Source of the DNA: Vezdaea acicularis
Taxonomy: Eukaryota
Length of the DNA: 29,319 nt
Assembly (NCBI GenBank): GCA_026025075.1
Contig: JAPEUI010000071.1
Span: forward strand, 62,001-91,319
Direction: 5' to 3'
Numbering within the stretch: position 1 is the stretch's first letter; each line of letters opens with the position of its first letter. This document shows, piece after piece, positions 2,354 to 14,998 of the stretch. The notes beneath the pieces are model-generated. The model did no database searches, had not been told where the DNA came from, and saw only the letters and a program-made list of their open reading frames with translations. The translations under genes and the position numbers were made by a program.

Positions 2354-3085
2354 GTGGGGTAGGCTTCGGATCCGTCAATTGTAGCGAGGAACCCAGGTCA
2401 ACAACCTACAGTATCTGTGCGACACGGCGCCTAACCAAGTAGAATGGTTCAAGCCTCAATTTGACGATTCGTTCTTCTTCAGATGATAGCATACTAAGTT
2501 CACGCAAGATTTGAGAACGTAGATATCAGTTAAACGACGTGACGGCAAGAACGACTCCATCTTGCTACAGTAGCAGGTCAAGAGACCGAGTGACAAGGGA
2601 GACGGTAACACTTACTCGGGTGTCTATGAGCTGCAACCCAGGTGGCACAGACACATCTCAGAAGGTCAGAAGGTTTGCCGGGAAATCTTCACATAACCGA
2701 TGCAAGTAATAAGCAAATCCGTCTCCAAGAGGTCCTTGAGTCTCATCTATCTGGTGCAGATTATGATTCATTGCATCTAAGGGGGATAATTCACCACAAA
2801 TTTCGGATGAGGCAAGCGCCACCACGTTCGTTGTTATCCGGCTTCGTTACGGAACTCATCCCATAGATATACTACAAATAACCTTATCTCATAGTAATGA
2901 CTAACTTGAAATTCTGCACCATGTCTGTGGAGGCTGGCTCGAAGGCTCCTCAAGCCAAAGCTAAAGCGGCCCGTACTGCGCTGCATAATAGTCAAGACGT
3001 TGATGACAATCTTTATAGAATGCAATATAACTGCCCGTAATATTGAACAGCTTTGCCAGCCCAGAAGGTATAGTACTGGGAACTA

Positions 3086-3773
3086 TCACCAACGTTGCTG
3101 TATATGTATGTCTCCAGTAGCTGCTCTGACTTTTTGCTTCGCCGACTCAATGTCAGACTCCGCTATTATCCGCTCGTGAATTGCGATGCGTCCTTCTAGT
3201 GCCCCTCGTCGTGCAGCGGGGTCACTAACATGATTGTTAGATTCTTCCTCTTTGTCCGGAGCTCGTCTATTTTCAACTGCCCTCCAGACCATACGTTCGC
3301 CATTCGGCAAGATCACTTTGTAATGGGTACTCTATCCACCTTCCTTTCCCCCGCCTTTGAACTTCTCTATCCGCACTTCGTTTTCTGCTGCGTGAATGCT
3401 GGCTTGGACCGTTGGCGAGGTCACGTTCTGACTCGTAAACGTGGCCTGCGTTTCCCCCAAAGCAGCCGCGACCCTTTGGTGATTTATGTAATCATATACG
3501 AAGCTGTCCAGGACGCCTTTTGCGTTAGTGGTTATATATACTATTAGGCCGATATTCGCATATGACTCCAGAGAGCTTGCCCCTTTGAATTAACTTTCTT
3601 GGACACCTCACTATATGAAAAGAATCGCTTGTATCTATGGGCGATGAAGGATCACCTATAATTGTTGTTATTCTCAATGAGTAGCCTTATTTACTGGTTG
3701 TACCAGTTTGAGTGCGAGCTGTTGCTATTGCAACTAGTAGGTATCCTACCAATGAAAGTAAGGACCACTGCAT
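3086..3773 (-). pseudogene. Probable decayed gene for a secreted protein; exons 3773-3704, 3655-3581, 3516-3086, with in-frame TAG at 3334-3332
   Basis: Signal-peptide-like start MQWSLLSLVGYLLVAIATA. A 48-nt GT-AG intron and a 64-nt GC-AG intron (GCAAGC...ACTAAC...AAG) keep the frame. The frame continues through one TAG into the 76-aa ORF 3316-3086. More splice-like signals down to ~2.5 kb suggest it may extend further. Confidence 0.35.
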
Positions 3774-4143: not shown

Positions 4144-5605
4144 CTAGACGCCTCGAGTGACCCTTTCAATCCGCAATTTATCTAGCAATTCTTGTAGGCT
4201 GTGACCTTCAATCTTAAGTGCTAGATCTTGCAGCCTAAAAAAAGTTGGTCCTGCCTCATATGTACGGATCTCCGGCATCGTCAAAATCGTTGCTTCGATG
4301 CGCGCCAACACTCTCTCATACGTTCGCGATTCCTTGCTCTCGAATTTGCAGATTTCGAGATGGTCCCCTGGAAGACCAATGACGCGCTCGCGGCGCTGAC
4401 CGAGGATAGCTGAACCTTCGTCAACGACCTAGAAGCATGGATAGTTAATTTGAGAGCTTACGGTCTGAGAGACGATAGTAATAAGCCATGATGCATTTTC
4501 TATGGGAATAGATACCCACAAGAAGATAGACGATAAGTACTATCACTTGCCTGGTAGAAGACCTGAGATATGAGGAGTGGAAGTAATGGGAGAAGTGAAG
4601 CATCACTTTTCCTAGCACATGGCGCATTGGGTGGGCCGCTACGACAACAAGGAGGGGTAGCGCCGGATACAAGAAAATAGTGCGTTTCTAGGAAACGTGA
4701 CGGACCTTTACGCCATAGAGGGCCTTTTCTTCGTAAAATGTGGTAATTTCAAAGTCTGGTGCGATCTCTGAGAAGATTCTAGTCAGGTCTTTGAGAGGAT
4801 TTGACCATCTCTGAAGCTCATCCGTGGAGGTAGAGGCGGTCATGCCTAACACGCGCGACAATTTACTAAGATGGCCGCCCCAAACAGCCGTGTCGGAGCC
4901 TTGGTGAGGAGTACCAAAAAATATGATTGCACGCGTGGAGTCCAAGATGCTTCCATATAATGCACGACGGGCTCCTGCATGACAAAGGGCACTCTTAATG
5001 ACAATACCGCCCATCGAGTGCCCAATGAAAAGAATCGGGCGAGCAGTTTCTGAAGATCGGATCCTACTATCCGAAAGATCACTCAAAAGGCTCTCGGCAA
5101 AGGTGAATGTTCTGCCTGAAGTTGATCTAGATACCGGATTCAAGAACGCTTTCGCATCGTATCCGAATGTCATAACACGTGCCTTCGCACAAACATCGGA
5201 GTCGCATAGGAAGTCTCGAAGCCAGAGGGGCCCGTTTTTACCATTGTACTGCCATGCTGTTATGCGTCAGGAAGCATACAAAGACGTTAAGATATCAACA
5301 AAGTACATGAGAAAGAGTCTTAGATGGGAATTAGCCTCAATAATGATTTTACGGATAGGTACAAGGTTACCTCCTCCAAGTCCATGTACTGCGACGATGC
5401 TACTGACTATCAATATGGACTTAAGATATAGAGATATCTATGTAACATACTCGATGTTTGGATCTTTGGGATCATGAAGTTTATGGAGGCCTAGTGTGTC
5501 TGCCTAAATTCATCACCGCACTATGTCAGCTATGAGATCTTCGGGCTCGTTCTGATCGCCAGTCCTTTTATCTTGATTTGAGTTGGCCTTCGACTAACCA
5601 GGCAT
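4144..5605 (-). CDS. Stand-alone SesB/DUF676/SERAC1-like alpha/beta-hydrolase (putative lipase), ~307 aa; exons 5605-5599 (start uncertain), 5490-5451, 5399-5371, 5318-5307, 5256-4706, 4428-4144
   Basis: Spliced product reads DIVAVHGLGGDSFSSW...WLRDFL...RVMTFGYD...LFIGHSMGGIVIKSAL...IIFFGTPHQGS...FYEE...VVDEGSA...DHLEICKF. These are the typical motifs of the fungal NLR-associated SesB-like hydrolase. All introns are GT-AG and in phase. Confidence 0.85.
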
Positions 5606-6536
5606 GAGTTGGTCGCGATATTTTTGTCGAGTGCGAAGTGGAAGAACATAAGACGTTCACATGTTCATCTATGGCTAGAAAAGGTCCACTCCACCAACAT
5701 CCACACTAAGATGCGAGTCAATTGGAATCCCTCGCCATGAAGATAACTAGGTCAGATATCTGGGTTGGTCCTTCGCAGTGCTGCGCGTGTTCACCAGGGG
5801 GGTTATTCAGCGAAACGAAGAATTTTGGTCCAGTCCAATCAATACCCTTCAGATTGGCTTCGTCTTTGTGAATTGGCATATCAGTGCTTCGAGGAAGAAA
5901 ACTCGATCTAAGTTCTTGGCTTATACTCATGAATGATGCCCAGCATCATTAATCAATCGAGTCCAATTCTTCAAGCAAAGTGTGCGTACTCCGACAAGCT
6001 CCTTGACTGCGGCTCGTATGGTACAAAGTACATGGTAATCGTATCATCGTCGAGCAATAGTCTGAACAAGATAGGGAGATCCAGGGAAGCACTGCTTGAA
6101 TGTACACATCGAAGGCCATCAAGACAAAGCCTAGGTAAATTGATACACTTACTGGTATGTCAAGTGAGGACGATTCTGTCATTTTCAAGGAAAGCGACCT
6201 CCGTGTCAGACGAATGATAGACAACAATCACGAGTAAACTGCGGTTTTCTCCTCACAAAAGGAGCGTAAGAGAGGCAGATCTCGTTGGAGTTTCGTTCTT
6301 TTGTTGTATGAGGTTGCCCTGATATCCCTGCAGCCTCGTCTTAACAGACCTTCTCGCTCATTGGCTGGATATCCGCCCGATCCTTGCTCCATCAGGATAC
6401 AGTCGCGGCGGCACCCTCAATATGCGACAGCTGTATTTGATGTCCAGCCCCGAATGGCTAAGTCTCTCAAATAGAGAGATGCAATCGTTGATAGACCACT
6501 GTCTCGTCACGGTGGCGCGTCCCGCGACAATGAGAG

Positions 6537-9500
6537 ATGCAGGATTCCGAGAGCTTGACCACATCTTGTTCCTTTCCTCTCCAAACAGCGACCCCGATTG
6601 ACCTTAAGATAGGCTTTGAGTAAGGACTAGTGGCTAAAACGGAAAATCGTGGAGGGTTGCTGACAATTCTTAGTTCTGCCAGTGGAGACTCTCTCGCATT
6701 GACTCGAATCCCGCGGTGTCAAGATGGTCGCGGAGAGCCTGATCTCTTGCTGTTCGCAGTCCACGGATTTGCGGGAGGATCCATGTCCACTTGGAGGACG
6801 GATCATGGAGTCTCTCTTCTCACTGATCTACTGCCTAAGGACTTCCCCAGTCTATCCATACTCACGTTTGGTTACGATCTCAACGCTGCATACGACGATA
6901 CCTTACTGATGAACTCTCATGACACACGTCGACCTAAAACATTCGCTGAGCAGTTGTGCAGCGATCTTTCAGATGCCAATTTAAAGGGGCTACCTATTGT
7001 GTTTCTATGCCATGGCATAGGGGGTATTATCGTGAAGAGTGCTTTGACCTACTCCCGACTTAGGCACAAGGCATATGGGGAGATTCTCGACAGAACGGTT
7101 CACGTCATCTTCATGGACACTCCCCATCAAGGCTTTGATGGTGAGTGTTGGGAGGCACTTTCTGGGAATAAGCTGAAGGCAACATGGCTGGCAGACTTTT
7201 CGGCGACCTCTAACTATCTCTCGGAACTCAACCGGTCATTTGCAGAGATTGGTAGATCGTTGCAGTGCACCTCTTTTTATGCGAGCGACCCTGTGATTAC
7301 CGAAAGGGGGAGATTTCGAGTTGTTGAGTCATCCAGCAACCTGGGCATTACGTATGAGAGATCTGTCATGCTCGATAACACGGATCACATCTCAATCTCC
7401 AAGTTCCCAAATGCAACAGATTCAGGATACGTAAGACTTAAGAGTCGCCTTGACTGGATCCGGACGCAGACACAACAAGTCTTGTCTAATAGATCATACC
7501 AAACGCTCGCTCTGGGCCCGCTTGAAGAGAATTCTCAGACAATTATTAAGAAGAACACAAAATTTGACAAGCACGAGTACTCAACTGCTATTGAGATTTT
7601 ATCTACCGAAGAGAGACGTTGGGCTATCAAAGACTGGATATCCACTCATCGCGAGCGACAAACTCGATCCTACTACAATGCGATGAGACAGGAAAACACG
7701 GCTACATGGATTATGAACAAACCTTTGTTCAAACAATGGGTACACGGTGGTAATCCTTCAGCACTTCTATGCGTCGGCAATGTTGGGACTGGCAAAAGCG
7801 TTCTCACTTCGCATGTTATTGATTGGATCGAGCAGCAAACACGCTCAGCCAGTGCTATGGCTGGCGCAGCGGTCCTGTATTTCTTCTGTAACCATTTCGA
7901 AAAGGCTTCCTTGAAATCGCTCACTCTCATCGCCTGTCTGGTTAAACAGATGCTTCTCTATTATGATGCCATTTCGAGACCCTATCCGCCAGATATACTT
8001 GAGGGATTCAAGCGACGCCCTTCTCGAATCAGCGACGGAATCGACGAATCGCAAGCTGTGTATTATTTACACTCCATACTCGCCAACAACCAACAGACCC
8101 TGTGCATAATTGACGGTCTAGATGAATGCGATCCTTTGCATCGAAAGAGAATCCTTAAATGTTTGCAAGGCGCATTAGAAAACGCCACAGACACAAATAG
8201 TTTCAAACTCTACATGAGCAGCCGCGAAGAGCATGACATTCTACAGTCCATAGACAGCTGTCAAACAATTCAGTGCTCTTTCAGCGATGTTGTTCATGAT
8301 ATTAGAAACTACGTGGAACGAGCTGTGCAGGATATAATTGTGAAAAAGAGACGCACAGAGGATGCGAAACTTGTACAGCAGATTAAAAGTACGCTTGTTG
8401 AAAAGTCACAGGGGATGTAAGTGTCCCGCTTCAGCTTTGTTTTGATTCAACTAAGATTTTAGGTTTCTCTGGGCAAGCCTTCAAGTAGAAGCGATTAGCG
8501 AGGAGTGCAACAACGATAGGGAGATTCTTTACGCGCTGGAACATCTACCTAAAGATCTCGATGAGACTTATGAGCGTTGTTTGCAACGCATTGCGCGACG
8601 AAAGGCCGATCCAAAGCTTGCTCTAAAGATACTGAAATGGGTTTGTTGTGCGAAGCGTCCGCTTCATATAGACGAATTGAAAGAAGCTGTTGCTTTTGAC
8701 CTCAACGATGTTCGGTGGGACATTAAGAAAGTACCCCGTAGTACTGACTTACTTCTAGGCTCTTGCGGTAGTCTTATCGTCTTGGATGCTCTGGATGAAA
8801 CAGTCCGTTTTGCTCATCATAGCGTTGAGCAGTTTCTGAGCAATAAAGAGCACTTCCATTCCGGGGGCGCAAATAGGATGTTCTTCATTGACCTAGACGC
8901 AGCAGAGGTGGAGATTGGTGAAATATGTGTTACATACCTGTCGTTTCAGGAGATCGAGCGTCACCTTTCTAAGCCACCTCAGACAAGCGTCTCCCTTGCT
9001 GTACCGCCTCTTATGAAATTTCTCGACCCATTGGCAGCGTCGCTTGAATACCGTTATCCGTTAGGCGCCATCGCCTCTTTAAGCCGCCGTAATTTCACGA
9101 GTCCTAAGATCTTCCTGCCTCGCCCGGTCAATGTCAACATCATATCGGGCACGTACCGGCTTCTTGACTATACGGCTAAGTCCTTGCATTGGCTATCCCA
9201 CACAAGGAGATTGGATACGCGCTCATTGGCTTGGTCCAAATTCGCACATGTGGCTACCAACGAGATTGTGTTTCATGCCATCCACCCCTGGAAATCGGAT
9301 AAAAGCTCAAAGCTACCCTTCTGGAAAGGAATGCTTCGGTGGGCTCTCGAAAATCGACATCTACCTCTTTTCCACTTGCTTCTTGAAACGGGACAACAAA
9401 CCCTCAAATTTATTCCAGACCTTCTGCAAACGGCATTTGGAGACGAACATCTGCCGCTTCAAATCGCAGCAAAATCTGGATTTGAGGACGCCGTCGAGGC

Positions 9501-11634
9501 TATTCTACGATTAGATCGAAGTTTGGCATTGAAATGCTCAACTGCTGATAAAAGATCAGCTCTTCATTGGGCGGCTGCTCATGGTCACGCGAAAGTCGCT
9601 GAATATATTATATCCTCAGGCAGGGATAAAGAACGCAAGCTACTGAACGCTCGAGATAAATCGGACAAAACCGCCTTCTGGCTAGCCGCTCGTTACGGTC
9701 ATGCTTTCACGTTCCGCTTTCTGTTTGAACAAGGGACTGCTATTTACCCAAAGCTGAAGGAGCTATTGAACTCGGCTTTCTACGTTGCTTCAGAGTATGG
9801 CCATGAAATGGTAATTCAAGTCTTGCTTGAGCGGGAGAAGCTTGCCTATTACAACGTCGGAGCAGCGATGGAAATTGCGGCGACGAATGGGCATTGGAGT
9901 ATCTTCCGCCAGATATTTAGACACGAGGATAAAATCAATATGATTCCGTATATGGACATTTTCAACATTCAGATATTAGCCATCAAACATGACCGTCTTA
10001 AGGTTATCTGTGAATTGGCTGAATGGTATAATCAATTGGACCACGGAACCCATTGGTCTCGCTCTTTCTACGGTCGGCATGGATATTTTACGTATCAACC
10101 ATTATCCTTGGCAGTGGAGCTGCGCAGGACGGAGATTCTACGGTGTCTCCTGCTCTACTCTCAAACAAGAAGCGTCATCGATGTCGAAACCGTGATGACA
10201 GCATCTTCTCTCCTATTTCAAGCTGCATTTGCTGGGTTCTCTGACGTTGTAGGAGTGCTTCTCACTTTTCCTTTTGAAGCAGTTGAAATCGACAAGGAAT
10301 GTGGCTCCGATCTAATGGCGGCCCTTCGCACTGCCTGCATTAAAAATTACGCCGAAGTTGTTAGTACTCTTCTAAGTTCAGATATAATTGATGTCAACCA
10401 CCTCGATGACCGTGGTCTTACACCATTGATTAACGCGGCCGAGCTTGGACATTTAGGGATCGTCAAACTCTTATTAGACTCCGGTCGAGTTGATCTTCGT
10501 CAAACCGACAGCAACGGGGACAGTCCGCTGCTATGGGCCGTTAAAAGTGTGCACAGAGAGATGGTTCGATTAATATTGGGTAGGGAAGGATTAGATGAAG
10601 CACAGAGAGGAAGGGACGGCAATCCAGCCTTTGTGGAAGCTGTACTCTCTGGCGATACCACTCTTATTAGATTGTTTCTCGAAGGCGCAAAAGATCTCGA
10701 GGTCCGAAACGCTGAAGGTTTAACAGCATTCCTAGCTTTCTTTTGGTCATCGGTGACCGATGGTCTCTATAATTCCGCCTTGTCTGCACTCCTGGCCTCA
10801 CAAAAACTGTCCTTTGGGGCAAGGGATGATACAGGGCAAACAGCACTTCACATCGCCGTAGACTGCATGCGCCCTTCGGCGGTTGAAATGCTCCTGGTTT
10901 CTAATCGAGTTTCCGAAAGTGTACATCCCAGTATTGACGAATCTACGGGATGCTTAAACATCAACACCAGAGACAATAATCAGCGTACGGCTTTGATGGT
11001 CGCTGTAATTAATGGGAACACTCCTGCAGTAAGACTTTTGATACAACATCGGGGGTGCCTCATAAATGCAAGAGACAGCTTAGAGCAAACTGCATTTATG
11101 ATGTCAGCTGGCTTATCTCTGCGTGGTTCAACTGATAAAAATTCTAGTCTTAAGCTGCTTCTTGAAGATCCCAGGACTGATGTCAATGCGAGGGATGTTT
11201 CCGGCGAAACGGCACTTATGTCAGCTGTATCTAAAGATCGACTCCACAATGTCGAGACTCTTCTAAACTCCACTCGCATCGATCCCAATACCAAGGACAG
11301 ATCAGGAAATACAGCATTGATGCGTGCGGTGCTCAAGGGAGATTACCAAATGCTTAGGCTCCTTTTGGAATGCGAGCGCATTGACACCAATATAAAGGAT
11401 AAAACCGGAGCAACAGCCTTTATATTAGCTGCGTCTCATGTCGGACCAAAGTGTCTCCAACTCTTTTTGGACCATGAACCCACCGATGTTAACGCCAGAA
11501 CAATGAAAGGTGAGACAGCTCCTATGGTTGCAGCCCTAAATGGGAATTGGGACTGCTACAAAGTCTTGTTGGAGTGCGAGCGAATCGACTCCACCGCTGT
11601 CGAATCGACTCCACTACAATCGAAGCGATTGTAA
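6537..11634 (+). CDS. Fungal NLR-like STAND protein: degenerate SesB-like hydrolase - NACHT - winged helix - ankyrin repeats, ~1665 aa; exons 6537-6619, 6674-8416, 8463-11634
   Basis: N-terminal AVHGFAGG...LTFGYD...CHGIGG...DTPHQG domain. Walker A GNVGTGKS (7776-7799), Walker B CIIDGLDEC (~8103-8129). A 46-nt intron restores the NACHT motif GMFLWASLQ. RFAHHSVEQFL motif, then many ANK repeats (D-x-N-x-x-D-x-x-G-x-T-A-L-M-x-A). The first exon is inferred from GTAAGG...GCTGAC...TAG. Confidence 0.9.
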
Positions 11635-12253
11635 GAAATGGGTACCTTGAGCACTTTCTAGAAATCGAGCGTATCCGTTGACGCCAAGAACAAAGTCAGA
11701 GGAACGATTTTCTAGCCGTCACACCACAGCAGAGGAGTTGCCCGCCTCCACCCGTTTTTAGAACCTCGGCGCTTCGAACTTCACAGCGAGGATGAAAGTT
11801 TTGTCGCAGATTTGATGCTTTCAATACAAATTGAGAATTTGTTCGCCTCACATTCCGCGTGAATTGTGAGCGCGGCGACGTTATTGCAAGAATGAACATG
11901 GGGCAAACGTCACTGATGTACGCTGCGGGTTATGAGAAGCATAAGTGCCTCCTGGCCTTACCGCAATCTTAGTGCGTCGATGTCAACGCAAAAGATATTT
12001 CAGGGCGAAGAGCTTGGATACGCGCTGCAATTCATGGCAAGCTAAAGTATATTTAAGACCTGCTGGATTACCAGCATGTTGGTGTGAAAGCCCAAATCGG
12101 TCCTGCTGTGACAGCCTAATAAAGGCCACGCGTACAACTGATGCGAGGTTCCTCGAAGTCATGCTGGAATCGAAACGGGTGAATCTTCAACTCGCAATTG
12201 ACAAAGGAGATACTGCACTAGACTATCACACAGCTAACACCGAGCAAGATTAA
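11635..12253 (+). pseudogene. Decayed ankyrin repeats continuing past the NLR stop codon
   Basis: The frame at 11877 reads DVIARMNMGQTSLMYAA...PQS*CVDVNAKDISGRRAWIRAAIHG...YI*DLLD, with stops at 11970 and 12054. Another frame ends LEVMLESKRVNLQLAIDKGDTALDY. Both match the ANK consensus of the upstream gene. Confidence 0.75.
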
Positions 12254-12770
12254 AGAGAAAGGGCAGGGCATGATAATCTCTGCCTTCAGCTGCTCTCACA
12301 GGTAGATCCAGCATTAACCCACTGAAAAGATCGGCCATGGCGAAAAGAGCGGCTAAAGATAGAGCTCGACGATGTGTTCTCTTATTATGGGCGTAGGCAC
12401 TCTTATCATAAGGAGCTGAGGTTTTTGGATAGAAACAGCCTTGCTTCAAGGAGTATCAGAGGTGGTGTTGTGACAAGATCATATTTCTAGGGAGAAGATC
12501 ATCTCTTATCTCCACAATGTATTGTCATTTCTCATGGAGCATTCAAAGAAGGGAGGGATCGCGCTGGCACCTGTTCACGAAGTATGAGAGTTTTGTTTTG
12601 TTTCTAGTCCATATATCTACATTATAACAACCAGATAAATCTATAACGCTTCCTTTCCTAGTCATTTAAACAATATAATTGGCCTTGTCGAAACCAAGCC
12701 TGGCTATCGCCCCTCAATGGTCTAACAACAACGAAAATACCTTTGAATGAATAAAGTTGCGTGGACACTT

Positions 12771-14998
12771 TCAGGGCAGGAAGGGCTCTAAGACCTGGAC
12801 AAGTCGAGCAATTAGTTTGGATGCGACTTCCCAAAATCGATGCATATTGGCCAGGGAAATATTTCTCTGGGCTCCTGATGCAACTCTTATGGATGATATC
12901 TCGTCCAAGACCTTAGAGAAATGACCTTCCGTCGGCGTCGGTACGCTACCCCTTTTACCCAAATAGGGTTGGCCCAGAGTACTTGGAAAGGAGCGAGGAA
13001 TGTCAGGGGTGAATGCTGGCCACAACACAAACGTGCTGGGTGATGTAGTTGAGATGGAAACTTTACTCTGATTGGCAGAGGTAAGAATACTGGAAGCGAC
13101 TGTTTTGTTTGAAGACCAGCTATGGTTGGTGGATCCATCAGAATTTAGCATAGCCCGGGAGATCGAGCTACAATTATTGTGGACAATTCCCACACTTGGC
13201 GCAGAGCATCTAGCCTCATCTTCCATTAGGGAAGGTCTTGCAGTTCTCGTAGTCCCTAAGCTTGGCGACCAAGTGCTTTTATTTATGACATTGATGATAT
13301 GGGTGGAGAGAGGGGCTCTACTGTCCTGAGTAATACTCGCTAGAACGCTCACAGGTCTGGTTCCATGTAAAGGAATTGATTGATAAGTCGTCAGTGCAAT
13401 GCTCGTTTCAGGGCAGAAACAAGCTTTTCGGCAGTCTGTGCATGCCCATCCAGAGCCGCAAGGACACTCAGAAGGTGATTCTTCGACCGGGGGATAAAAG
13501 CAGCCACCGATACATTCACCACAAATATAACCTATATCTGTGCAGGGGCTCGCCGCAGTGGAGCTCGATATATTCGCCGTTTCTAAGATACCAATTAGCC
13601 ATGAAGGGCTGAAGTATTCCTGGGAGCAGGCTTCGCATTCCCACCCAGATGCACTTATGTGACTGAAAGGCTATGACCCCTGTGGCGGACAAAACCTACC
13701 TCCAAAATATCCCGAGTGTTGATAAGTAGCGTTTGACCTTAGAGACACGCTTTCCTCCACAAACCGAATAGCTGATATTAAAGGCGTACTATTTGCAAAT
13801 TCTGAGTCTGAATTCACCGGTATTATAGTTTGGGCAACTGAATGTGTGGATTCCGTATGGCAGTATGCACAAGAACTTGAAGATACTATTGATCCGGATG
13901 TAATTTCAGGGGAAAGTCCTGTCAAGGTGAGATGGTGAATATTACTGGTGATAGATATAGGTAATTGCGGCATTGTGTTCGTTTCAAGGCTGGCTGTAAT
14001 AGACCAACTGGCATCCACAGACAGCAACTCAGTCGCGCTAAACCATGTGGGCTCTAGCAAGCAGTAGGAAGGTGTCGCTATAGTTGTCACTGTAACCATC
14101 ACCGTGACAGTTGTGAAGGCTGTCCGGGTTGTAACAGATTCCTCTAGGGCTATGGAGTAGATTGGGGTGGCTATCTCGCCACCGGTAAGTGGGTCAGAAG
14201 GACTTGGAGAAGGAAGAGATAGGCATGTGGTTGGGTATATAATGACCGTACTTGGGAGACACCCATCTGACGTTTCTTCACATTCAGGGCAAAATACGGT
14301 CGATGCAGCAAGCGAAGAAGCCGCAGCTTTAGTGACAGTAGCATTACCAGAAGTGAGAAGGCTTGTTGGACTCAATGTGTAGGTAGAGAACATAGCTGCA
14401 GATACTGTGGTCGAATTCCAGAACCCGAGAAGTGAGAGTTCGGAAGTTGAAGTAAGAGACACAGCATCCAGTGTAGGCCTCATAGCAACATTCGACAATT
14501 TTGGAGATGCCGTAAACAGATCCGATTGTGTATGGGTAGTAGGGTTTGTGTCTAGTAATTGAAAAGCGACAGAACTGCTGCTGCGTCAAGTATCAGTCAG
14601 ATGAGGGTGACTTGAAGTAGCTATGAATGACTCAAACCTTGGAATTGTAAGTTTCTCTTCACACCCATGGCATGTGCTCGAAGCTGTATTTCTTATCGTT
14701 GATGGTGACAAACTGGGGCCGTCGCTCTGATAACTGTTGCATGCGAATTAGAAAGCTTTTAAAGTTGCCTAGACAACCAACTGGAATGGTTCTAGACTTA
14801 CTCCCAAATCAGATTGAAGCTTAAGTAATTACTCTCGTCCCGTTTCTCTTTAGTAGCTTTAGTTGTTTTCTCAATCTTCACGTCGGCGGAGTCGCGGGCC
14901 AAAATGGGTTCATAGTGAGGGGATACCACCAGGAAGAAAAAGGCAAGGCCTAATACCGCAGATGAAGACATCAGAAGGTGCCGAAAGCGAGTATACAT
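12771..14998 (-). pseudogene. Ser/Thr-rich secreted or cell-surface mucin-like gene with a Cys-rich module; 720 codons with two in-frame stops; exons 14998-14802, 14733-12771
   Basis: Hydrophobic N-terminus (SAVLGLAFFFLVV) and a KR site. A 68-nt GT-AG intron is in phase. ORFs 13671-14498 and 12771-13352 are one frame, broken only by TGA 14588-14586 and TAG 13673-13671. Cys module reads CGECIGGCFYPP...CPCGSGWACTDCRKACFCP. Confidence 0.7.

Follow-up and report, generated by a model that had tools for sequence, protein, structure and literature searches.

What purpose is served by a receptor whose effector-like domain has lost two catalytic residues, when an intact relative of that domain is encoded by the adjacent gene? 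Two divergent genes in a stretch of Vezdaea acicularis DNA raise this question (contig JAPEUI010000071.1, positions 62,001 to 91,319; the whole 29,319-nucleotide stretch that we analysed is called the window, and coordinates are counted from its first letter). One gene, at 6537..11634 on the plus strand, encodes a NOD-like receptor (NLR) of 1665 amino acids; the other, at 4144..5605 on the minus strand, encodes a stand-alone DUF676/SesB-like alpha/beta hydrolase of 303 amino acids. The source is of the filamentous ascomycete type. The NLR begins with a domain that resembles the hydrolase but lacks its catalytic serine, a state shared with a clade of NLR domains that is sister to a clade of stand-alone hydrolases and is repeatedly encoded beside members of it. 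It is quite possible, though short of probable, that the pair exemplifies an ancient module of two genes, conserved among filamentous ascomycetes, in which the neighbour would be the executor, recruited or activated through its dead paralogue.

Active sites of the hydrolase and the NLR domain

The stand-alone hydrolase contains a complete triad: the nucleophile Ser106 in GHSMGG (codon TCG, 5015..5017, minus strand), Glu201 in FYEE (4730..4732, minus strand), which is the putative catalytic acid after strand beta-7, and the catalytic His232 in GDHLEICKF (4360..4362, minus strand). The role of acid is one that we infer for this Glu, at the end of beta-7, from its position and conservation. The protein also carries FFGTPHQG and matched the alpha/beta hydrolase family profile; its main exon (exon 4) gave Pfam scores of 23.7 bits for DUF676 (cut-off 20.3) and 24.3 bits for PGAP1.

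In the NLR, a SesB-like pseudo-hydrolase domain occupies approximately residues 50–300 (6738..7490, plus strand). It was identified by phmmer matches to DUF676 proteins and by its alpha/beta hydrolase fold, and no Pfam hydrolase family, the DUF676 model included, matched the NH2-terminal 300 amino acids at E ≤ 0.01. The position of the nucleophile is taken by Gly142 in CHGIGG (codon GGC, 7014..7016, plus strand), Asp176 in FMDTPHQG (7116..7118, plus strand) replaces the family Gly of GTPH in a clade-specific manner, and Ala231 in FYAS (7281..7283, plus strand) occupies the site where the family has an invariant Glu. The catalytic-His position is kept, as His266 in TDHISISKF (7386..7388, plus strand). 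Fold and homology thus place the domain among the hydrolases, whereas the Ser of GxSxG and the acid are both absent, and with nucleophile and acid lost and His kept the domain is predicted to be catalytically dead.

The domain order of the NLR is pseudo-hydrolase, NACHT, winged helix and ankyrin repeats, and the NACHT core (7776..8129, plus strand) extends from Walker A, GNVGTGKS (7776–7799), to Walker B, LCIIDGLDEC (8100–8129). Pfam scores were 95.6 bits for NPHP3_N, 31.4 for NACHT, 44.4 for GPIID_WHD and 253.9 for Ank_2 in 8 stretches. With a NACHT that bears both Walker motifs, C-terminal repeats and an NH2-terminal accessory domain, the protein has the composition of a fungal NLR of the NACHT type among signal transduction ATPases with numerous domains (STAND).

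These observations bear out the layout, motifs and codons that the initial annotation had read from the locus: head-to-head genes with ATGs about 930 bp apart (932 by coordinate), GHSMGG, FFGTPHQG, FYEE and DH..ICKF in the hydrolase, CHGIGG with its Gly codon, FMDTPHQG and FYAS in the NLR, and intact Walker A and B motifs. It had also counted the NLR changes as three independent losses; the substitutions are real, but they are not independent, being the signature of a whole clade.

The signature of a Ser-less clade

An exhaustive phmmer search with the NLR N-domain returned 3861 proteins at E ≤ 0.001, 681 at ≤ 1e-10 and 3 at ≤ 1e-30. Proteins named DUF676 by their sources were among these relatives, and the Atlas neighbours of the domain were DUF676 clusters. 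A word-indexed search for longer proteins containing the N-domain region missed the known relatives and gave 1 unrelated-looking match (28% identity). All six of the best representatives (P0059–P0064) lack the Ser, five having Gly and one Asp, with the elbows CHGVGG, GHGVGG, GHGVGG, GHGIGG, GHGTGG and CYDIGG; the possibility raised in the initial annotation, that orthologous NLRs mostly keep the Ser, does not hold for these closest relatives. Over the 150 representatives listed, a sample skewed towards relatives of the Ser-less query, the nucleophile column held Ser in 117, Gly in 20, Asn in 5, Asp in 3, Cys in 3, Ala in 1 and a gap in 1.

Residues were compared in an alignment of 49 rows, comprising 10 of the Ser-less clade, 17 of the stand-alone clade, 7 basal to the stand-alone clade and 15 outgroup rows. 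The nucleophile was Ser in all 17 stand-alone and all 15 outgroup rows, and Gly (8), Asp (1) or a gap (1) in the Ser-less clade, whose GTPH site held Asp in nine rows and Glu in the tenth. Five conservation-filtered positions differed between the clades, the Ser-less one having Gly for Ser at the nucleophile, DTPH for GTPH, a Cys for the Leu in AExLC, a Gly for the Asp that follows the HG loop and, further on, a Gln for a Glu. The beta-7 Glu (F-Y/F-E), a position scored separately, was present in 17/17 stand-alone and 15/15 outgroup rows and in 0/10 Ser-less rows (Ala in 7, Ser in 2, Ile in 1). The His was kept in nine of the ten Ser-less rows, the tenth being a gap.

In the GTPH position, Asp or Glu occurred only together with a non-Ser or unreadable nucleophile (13 Gly/Asp, 1 Asp/Glu, 1 Asn/Asp and 1 gap/Asp) and in none of 155 Ser-bearing rows. 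Nine other rows with Gly retain GTPH, and Ser has therefore also been lost independently in other lineages; the Ser state needs at least 11 changes on the FastTree phylogeny described below. Examples of such losses, in which the Ser became Gly, Asn, Asp or Ala and GTPH was retained, are P0079, P0136, P0191, P0195, P0078, P0086, P0068, P0091 and P0140. On this comparison of sequences, the dead site of the NLR is a character of its clade and not the outcome of local decay.

Several genes of the Ser-less clade, those of the metagenome loci L001, L003, L005, L007 and L009, have an intron near the nucleophile elbow. In Clonostachys, the elbow segment is absent from gene model P0143, which gives no residue for that position.

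Relationship of the two domains

Aligned with each other by BLASTP, the window hydrolase and the NLR domain were 38% identical (58/154; E 4e-28). The closest relatives of the hydrolase elsewhere were 54–60% identical to it and 273–321 amino acids long, and came from Alternaria, Nemania, Colletotrichum, Cadophora, Phyllosticta, Penicillium and others. A FastTree phylogeny was built from 155 of 201 rows with at least 200 amino acids of the domain, the other 46 being excluded as fragments or as the window's own fragment, and it placed the Ser-less group beside the stand-alone group. We also ran IQ-TREE (LG+C20 with posterior mean site frequencies, PMSF) on 64 rows, of which 17 were Ser-less (7 of these were chained metagenome domains and 10 were proteins), 32 belonged to the stand-alone clade and 15 were outgroups; L004, L006 and L008 were excluded as duplicates, L011 and L012 as weak, and P0203 and P0206 as near-copies. 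Support was 100/99 for the Ser-less clade, 99/94 for the stand-alone clade, and 100/99 for the two together against the 15 outgroups. As far as these trees reach, the Ser-less NLR-domain clade is shown to be the sister of the clade of stand-alone, predicted active hydrolases.

The initial annotation had called for a domain phylogeny of this kind and had proposed a local duplication. The clades proved to be sisters but the two neighbours in the window did not: forcing the window pair together cost 95.3 log-likelihood units and was rejected by the approximately unbiased (AU) test (p-AU 0.00026). Because sisterhood is rejected and the hydrolase is more similar to stand-alone proteins from other fungi than to the adjacent NLR domain, the pair is not a recent local copy. 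The two domains had been called closely similar, but 38% identity, although far above chance, is ordinary for the family, and the shared "distinctive blocks" that had been taken as a sign of duplication are family-wide motifs. The neighbours are, by phylogeny, members of sister clades parted by one old duplication.

Recurrence of the pairing

Adjacency was judged in NCBI records from consecutive accessions or locus tags and from equal-length contigs. A clade NLR and a hydrolase are adjacent in Cadophora sp. DSE1049 (PVH84639.1, PVH84640.1; the NLR has FLAHGIGG), Acephala macrosclerotiorum (KAF8859461.1, KAF8859462.1) and Clonostachys rosea (VUC28700.1, VUC28701.1), all with consecutive accessions, and in two assemblies of Fusarium nematophilum with consecutive locus tags (ACJ41O_001558, 001559; ACJZ2D_004780, 004779). 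A scan of metagenomes with an alignment of the Ser-less domain yielded 12 loci, 9 of them distinct, of which six were placed in the clade by the tree and had usable flanks. An intact hydrolase lay divergently 730–1160 nt upstream in four of these: L001, L003/L004 (flank on L004), L005 (identical to L006) and L007 (identical to L008). In a fifth, L002, the intact hydrolase was convergent with the dead domain. The sixth, L009, had none. The flanks of L003 and L010 were too short, and L011 and L012, neither of which was shown to be a clade member, showed no neighbouring hydrolase.

The triad of Ser, Glu and His is intact in the partner hydrolases, and the pairs are, among loci with readable orientation and apart from L002, divergently transcribed. 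The carriers span Leotiomycetes and Sordariomycetes, and the closest NLR comes from a Lecanoromycete. Contigs of relatives about 95% identical to the window also carry both genes and are not independent evidence. The initial annotation had made its idea depend on conserved adjacency, and adjacency recurs in four of the seven named species with a listed clade NLR and in 5/6 usable metagenome loci.

A related arrangement was found in Ophidiomyces ophidiicola, a member of the Eurotiomycetes, in which a hydrolase adjoins an NLR (LOZ12_000410 beside 000411/000412, and KAI2149596.1 beside KAI2149595.1). The NLR domain keeps its Ser, but its Glu is replaced by Gly and its His by Asp, so that the NLR-side copy is again the dead one. 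The Walker A motif of this NLR is degenerate (GQLGCNTT, with the Lys missing). Its hydrolase-like domain takes a basal position in the stand-alone clade, yet constraining it into the Ser-less clade was not rejected (p-AU 0.256), and its origin may be independent of that clade or shared with it. Judged by its residues, Ophidiomyces shows another way in which the NLR-side domain has lost its active site. The NLR (P0083, P0284–P0293) is modelled as one gene of 1088–1362 amino acids in some assemblies and as two of 557 and 730 amino acids in others.

Fold and constraint

AlphaFold2 modelled the NLR N-domain as an alpha/beta hydrolase with high confidence (predicted local distance difference test score, 92.3; predicted template modelling score, 0.91). 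A Foldseek search with it returned only generic alpha/beta hydrolases (template modelling scores, 0.40–0.55), and a VIA search with a model of the orthologous hydrolase P0009 similarly matched lipases, PGAP1 and others at Z of about 17; neither gave a specific solved relative.

Constraint was examined with contigs of the ~95% identical relatives in four runs; some stretches lacked cover, such as 9942–10195 in all four. One contig of 3355 nt aligned with 6353–9706, the 5' half of the NLR, with 160 substitutions and 0 gaps. In three runs, 7017 A>G changed Ile143 to Val, giving CHGVGG. The GGC codon at 7014–7016 was unchanged among the differences listed, beside which there are 525 further rows, and the result is suggestive. 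The NLR domain, dead as its residues predict, is shown by the model and these comparisons to be well folded and conserved.

For the hydrolase gene region 28 differences were listed, 14 of them in introns or untranslated sequence. All 11 within the core (codons 1–231) were synonymous, and these codons show a core under purifying selection. The three in the COOH-terminal tail were all non-synonymous and included a stop at codon 288, and run X2 had small insertions at 4236–4249 of the tail. This tail is helical, comprises 65 amino acids (4144..4338, minus strand) and ends in a weak copy of a family C-terminal motif: the stand-alone clade hydrolases end in a helical [D/E]-L-x-x-R-[L/M]-x-x-L-[R/K], which is formed of helices in the P0009 model.

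Search for an amyloid-type link between the proteins

An effector-type gene adjoins the NLR, divergently and 931 nt away, as in known two-gene NLR units. By composition, and as the initial annotation had noted, no G/N/Q-rich stretch was present at either end that might carry an amyloid motif: the G+N+Q fraction was 0.135 in the first 52 amino acids of the NLR and 0.077 in the 65-residue hydrolase tail, against 0.12 for the whole proteins. Nor did the NLR N-end and the hydrolase tail share a segment, their local alignment score of 22 comparing with 19 ± 3.2 for shuffled sequences, 101/500 of which scored as high. Both results come from composition and shuffling rather than from published motif profiles.

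Gene models and surroundings

The hydrolase model is homologue-guided and has five exons (5605–5599, 5490–5451, 5399–5371, 5256–4706 and 4428–4144, minus strand), with the ATG at 5605–5603 and the stop codon at 4146–4144; the first exon, of 7 nt, is inferred. Its four introns, of 108, 51, 114 and 277 nt, are all GT..AG. The fourth (4429–4705) is the longest, the intron at the same place in L001 and L007 having ~48–60 nt. At the junction of exons 3 and 4 (5371–5399 / 5256), about four residues are missing after VHGLGG, where the family has D-S-x-S-T, including a nearly invariant Asp. The NLR starts with the ATG at 6537 and has exons 6537–6619, 6674–8416 and 8463–11634; both introns (6620–6673 and 8417–8462) are GT..AG.

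Between the genes lies a divergent intergenic region of 931 nt (5606..6536), a putative shared promoter, with similar spacing (about 730–1160 nt) in L001, L004, L005 and L007. No motif stood out among five intergenic regions: seven 7-mers were found in at least four of them, compared with a mean of 3.3 and a maximum of 11 in shuffled sequences, and no 8- or 9-mers were. The genes around the pair are ordinary, encoding a ZIP transporter, an AMP-binding enzyme, NAPRTase, syntaxin and eIF4E.

At its extreme 3' end (11581–11628) the NLR coding sequence carries 2.4 copies of a 20-nt unit. This was the only tandem array reported in 8400–12400, and the scan therefore found no near-identical ankyrin repeat units. 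An open reading frame (ORF) at 11945–12253 on the plus strand, just past the NLR stop, appeared ankyrin-like by eye but was discarded, its BLASTP match to the NLR repeats being not significant (E 0.48). On the minus strand, 12771–14585 holds two adjoining long ORFs of 299 and 304 amino acids that are Ser/Thr- and Cys-rich and have no Pfam match.

A possible mechanism and its alternatives

Since the NLR would have no active output domain, we take the neighbouring hydrolase as the executor. The ankyrin repeats would sense a trigger, whereupon oligomerization through the NACHT would cluster the pseudo-hydrolase domains. Once clustered, these domains might bind the paralogous hydrolase, paralogue to paralogue, and this binding would recruit the neighbour or activate its lipase or esterase activity, an amyloid motif playing no part. 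A broader claim, which we advance tentatively, is that this would be a third wiring of NLR to executor in filamentous ascomycetes, in which the receptor's dead copy of an executor, on oligomerization, captures and switches on the live paralogue next door. The module would predate the split of Leotiomycetes and Sordariomycetes, possibly with Eurotiomycetes included, and the NLR copy would have been inactivated by at least two routes. On the sequence comparisons presented here, the sensor/executor idea appears to gain substantial comparative support.

Several observations weigh against the executor model. For three of the seven named species (Pleopsidium flavum, Podospora appendiculata and Hirsutella rhossiliensis) the matches included no hydrolase from the same species and adjacency could not be checked, and the NCBI pairs show gene order only, not orientation. 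The Gly state of the metagenome loci is given by construction because the scan patterns were themselves the Ser-less motifs, which leaves the neighbour as the sole independent evidence. At L009, a locus of the clade, neither flank contains a hydrolase within 6 kb. L002 carries a Ser-less clade domain (2589–3511, plus strand; FLCHGIGG, DTPH) tail to tail with an intact hydrolase (4486–5397, minus strand), and neither a NACHT nor an ankyrin part occurs anywhere in its 9.6-kb locus; such a pair may therefore work without an NLR, although L002 could be either an NLR-free dead/live pair or a broken one. In favour of the model, distances in the trees of the two partners correlate (Mantel r 0.746, 9 pairs, 0/5000 permutations as high), path lengths on the NLR side (1.46–3.46) being roughly double those on the hydrolase side (0.72–1.88), but such agreement could also be expected from shared species history alone. 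The role of the Glu as acid rests on its position, without a solved structure, and the kept His together with the new invariant Asp could mean that the site is rewired rather than dead.

This last point leads to an account in which the NLR domain is an enzyme that works through the new Asp of DTPH and the kept His, the NLR being an all-in-one receptor and its neighbour incidental or redundant. The changes Ser to Gly and Gly to Asp, at adjacent strand ends, are indeed strictly coupled, with none among the 155 Ser rows, and the His persists in 9/10 rows. The family's invariant Glu is nonetheless lost in all ten, and the Asp is not a necessary companion of Ser loss, given that other Ser-less lineages (9 rows) keep GTPH; we are strongly doubtful of this account. 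A decaying pseudogene with random damage, which would explain the loss of two triad residues, is hardly credible in view of an intact ORF of 1665 amino acids with canonical introns and intact Walker A and B motifs, 0 gaps over 3355 nt against the 95% relative, a confident fold, and the same substitutions fixed throughout the clade.

The genes might instead be relics of an ancient tandem duplication, kept adjacent by a bidirectional promoter or by inertia and acting independently, with the NLR signalling otherwise or its N-domain serving as a scaffold. Such an origin fits the sister-clade relation, the divergent arrangement with about 0.7–1.2 kb between the genes, and the lack of a neighbour at L009. 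Fungal gene order erodes fast over such distances, however, and yet the two genes are still neighbours in Leotiomycetes, Sordariomycetes and, in the form with His and Glu lost, Eurotiomycetes. Moreover, the NLR-side copy lost catalysis by two routes whereas the free copy always kept its triad, and we consider that mere linkage is unlikely to explain the pair. Nor does it seem probable that the dead domain is a binding module that senses the substrate or product of the neighbour, or a bait for a foreign inhibitor, and so regulates activation of the NLR rather than its output. Three of the five clade-differing positions and the Glu position do lie just after beta-3, beta-5, beta-6 and beta-7, on what topology would make the active-site face; the His is kept; and the fold matches of the N-domain include KAI2-type hydrolases, which act as receptors. 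Against this stand the lack of a known ligand or effector, the usual assignment of sensing to the repeats, and the NH2-terminal position of the domain, which in fungal NLRs is normally that of the output domain according to the sections consulted of PMC4986451 and PMC3321046.

Relation to known systems

In the parts of the literature drawn on here, fungal NLRs are described either as all-in-one proteins or as pairs of genes linked through amyloid motifs, with SesB-type lipases in both (PMC3321046, PMC4986451, PMC9815663, PMC12881547), and SesB-like domains are among the commonest NH2-terminal domains of ascomycete NLRs (PMC4986451, PMC9815663, PMC12258605). The pairing of a dead NLR domain with a live hydrolase was not described in the portions searched, which did not extend to the supplementary tables of PMC9815663 and PMC12258605, and the portions consulted of PMC3321046, PMC4986451, PMC9815663, PMC12258605 and PMC12881547 mention neither the catalytic residues of SesB-like NLR domains nor neighbouring stand-alone paralogues. 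The nearest precedents are the het-eN/sesA/sesB cluster of Nectria (sigma) and the three-gene PP cluster of Chaetomium globosum, in which an NLR likewise adjoins a separate SesB-like lipase, the presumed effector (passages of PMC3321046 and PMC12881547). There, however, a short amyloid motif links the NLR N-terminus to the effector C-terminus in the descriptions consulted, whereas here the NLR carries a full-length dead copy of the effector fold. All-in-one SesB-like/NACHT/ankyrin NLRs have the same domain order and families as the window NLR, whose effector domain differs in lacking nucleophile and acid and in having a live paralogue in the adjacent gene.

Plant head-to-head sensor/helper NLR pairs, as treated in part of PMC12258605, resemble the present pair in being divergent, with a shared promoter region and divided labour, but both of their partners are NLRs and the partner here is a single-domain hydrolase of 303 amino acids. 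In the Sordariales, the portion drawn on of the same 2025 survey reports head-to-head NLR–NLR pairs as rare (13/225 two-NLR clusters; PMC12258605). Plant EDS1 with PAD4 or SAG101 forms lipase-like heterodimers downstream of TIR-NLRs, according to the part consulted of 10.1101/2021.12.15.472806, and the likeness lies in lipase-like paralogues in NLR immunity. These plant proteins are separate and not fused to an NLR, there is no sign of common descent, and for the window pair a heterodimer is only proposed. Enzymatic activity is not known to be what matters in EDS1–PAD4/SAG101. In animals, cFLIP is a dead paralogue encoded beside caspase-8 that regulates the active enzyme by heterodimerization on an oligomeric platform; it differs in that the enzyme is a protease rather than an alpha/beta hydrolase and in that the dead copy lies outside the receptor.

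Among the 150 representatives listed near the query, 29 have neither Ser nor Cys as nucleophile, and many NLR domains named SesB-like lipases therefore cannot be lipases, which is a caution for annotators of such domains. How most fungal NLRs relay their signal is unknown, the established means being a fused active effector or amyloid templating of a neighbour. If the present reading is true, a conserved dead-enzyme NLR with a live paralogue would constitute a concrete and testable third route. The pair would thereby give the abundant SesB-like class of fungal NLRs its first experimental handle and would parallel the pseudoenzyme/enzyme pairs of plants and animals.

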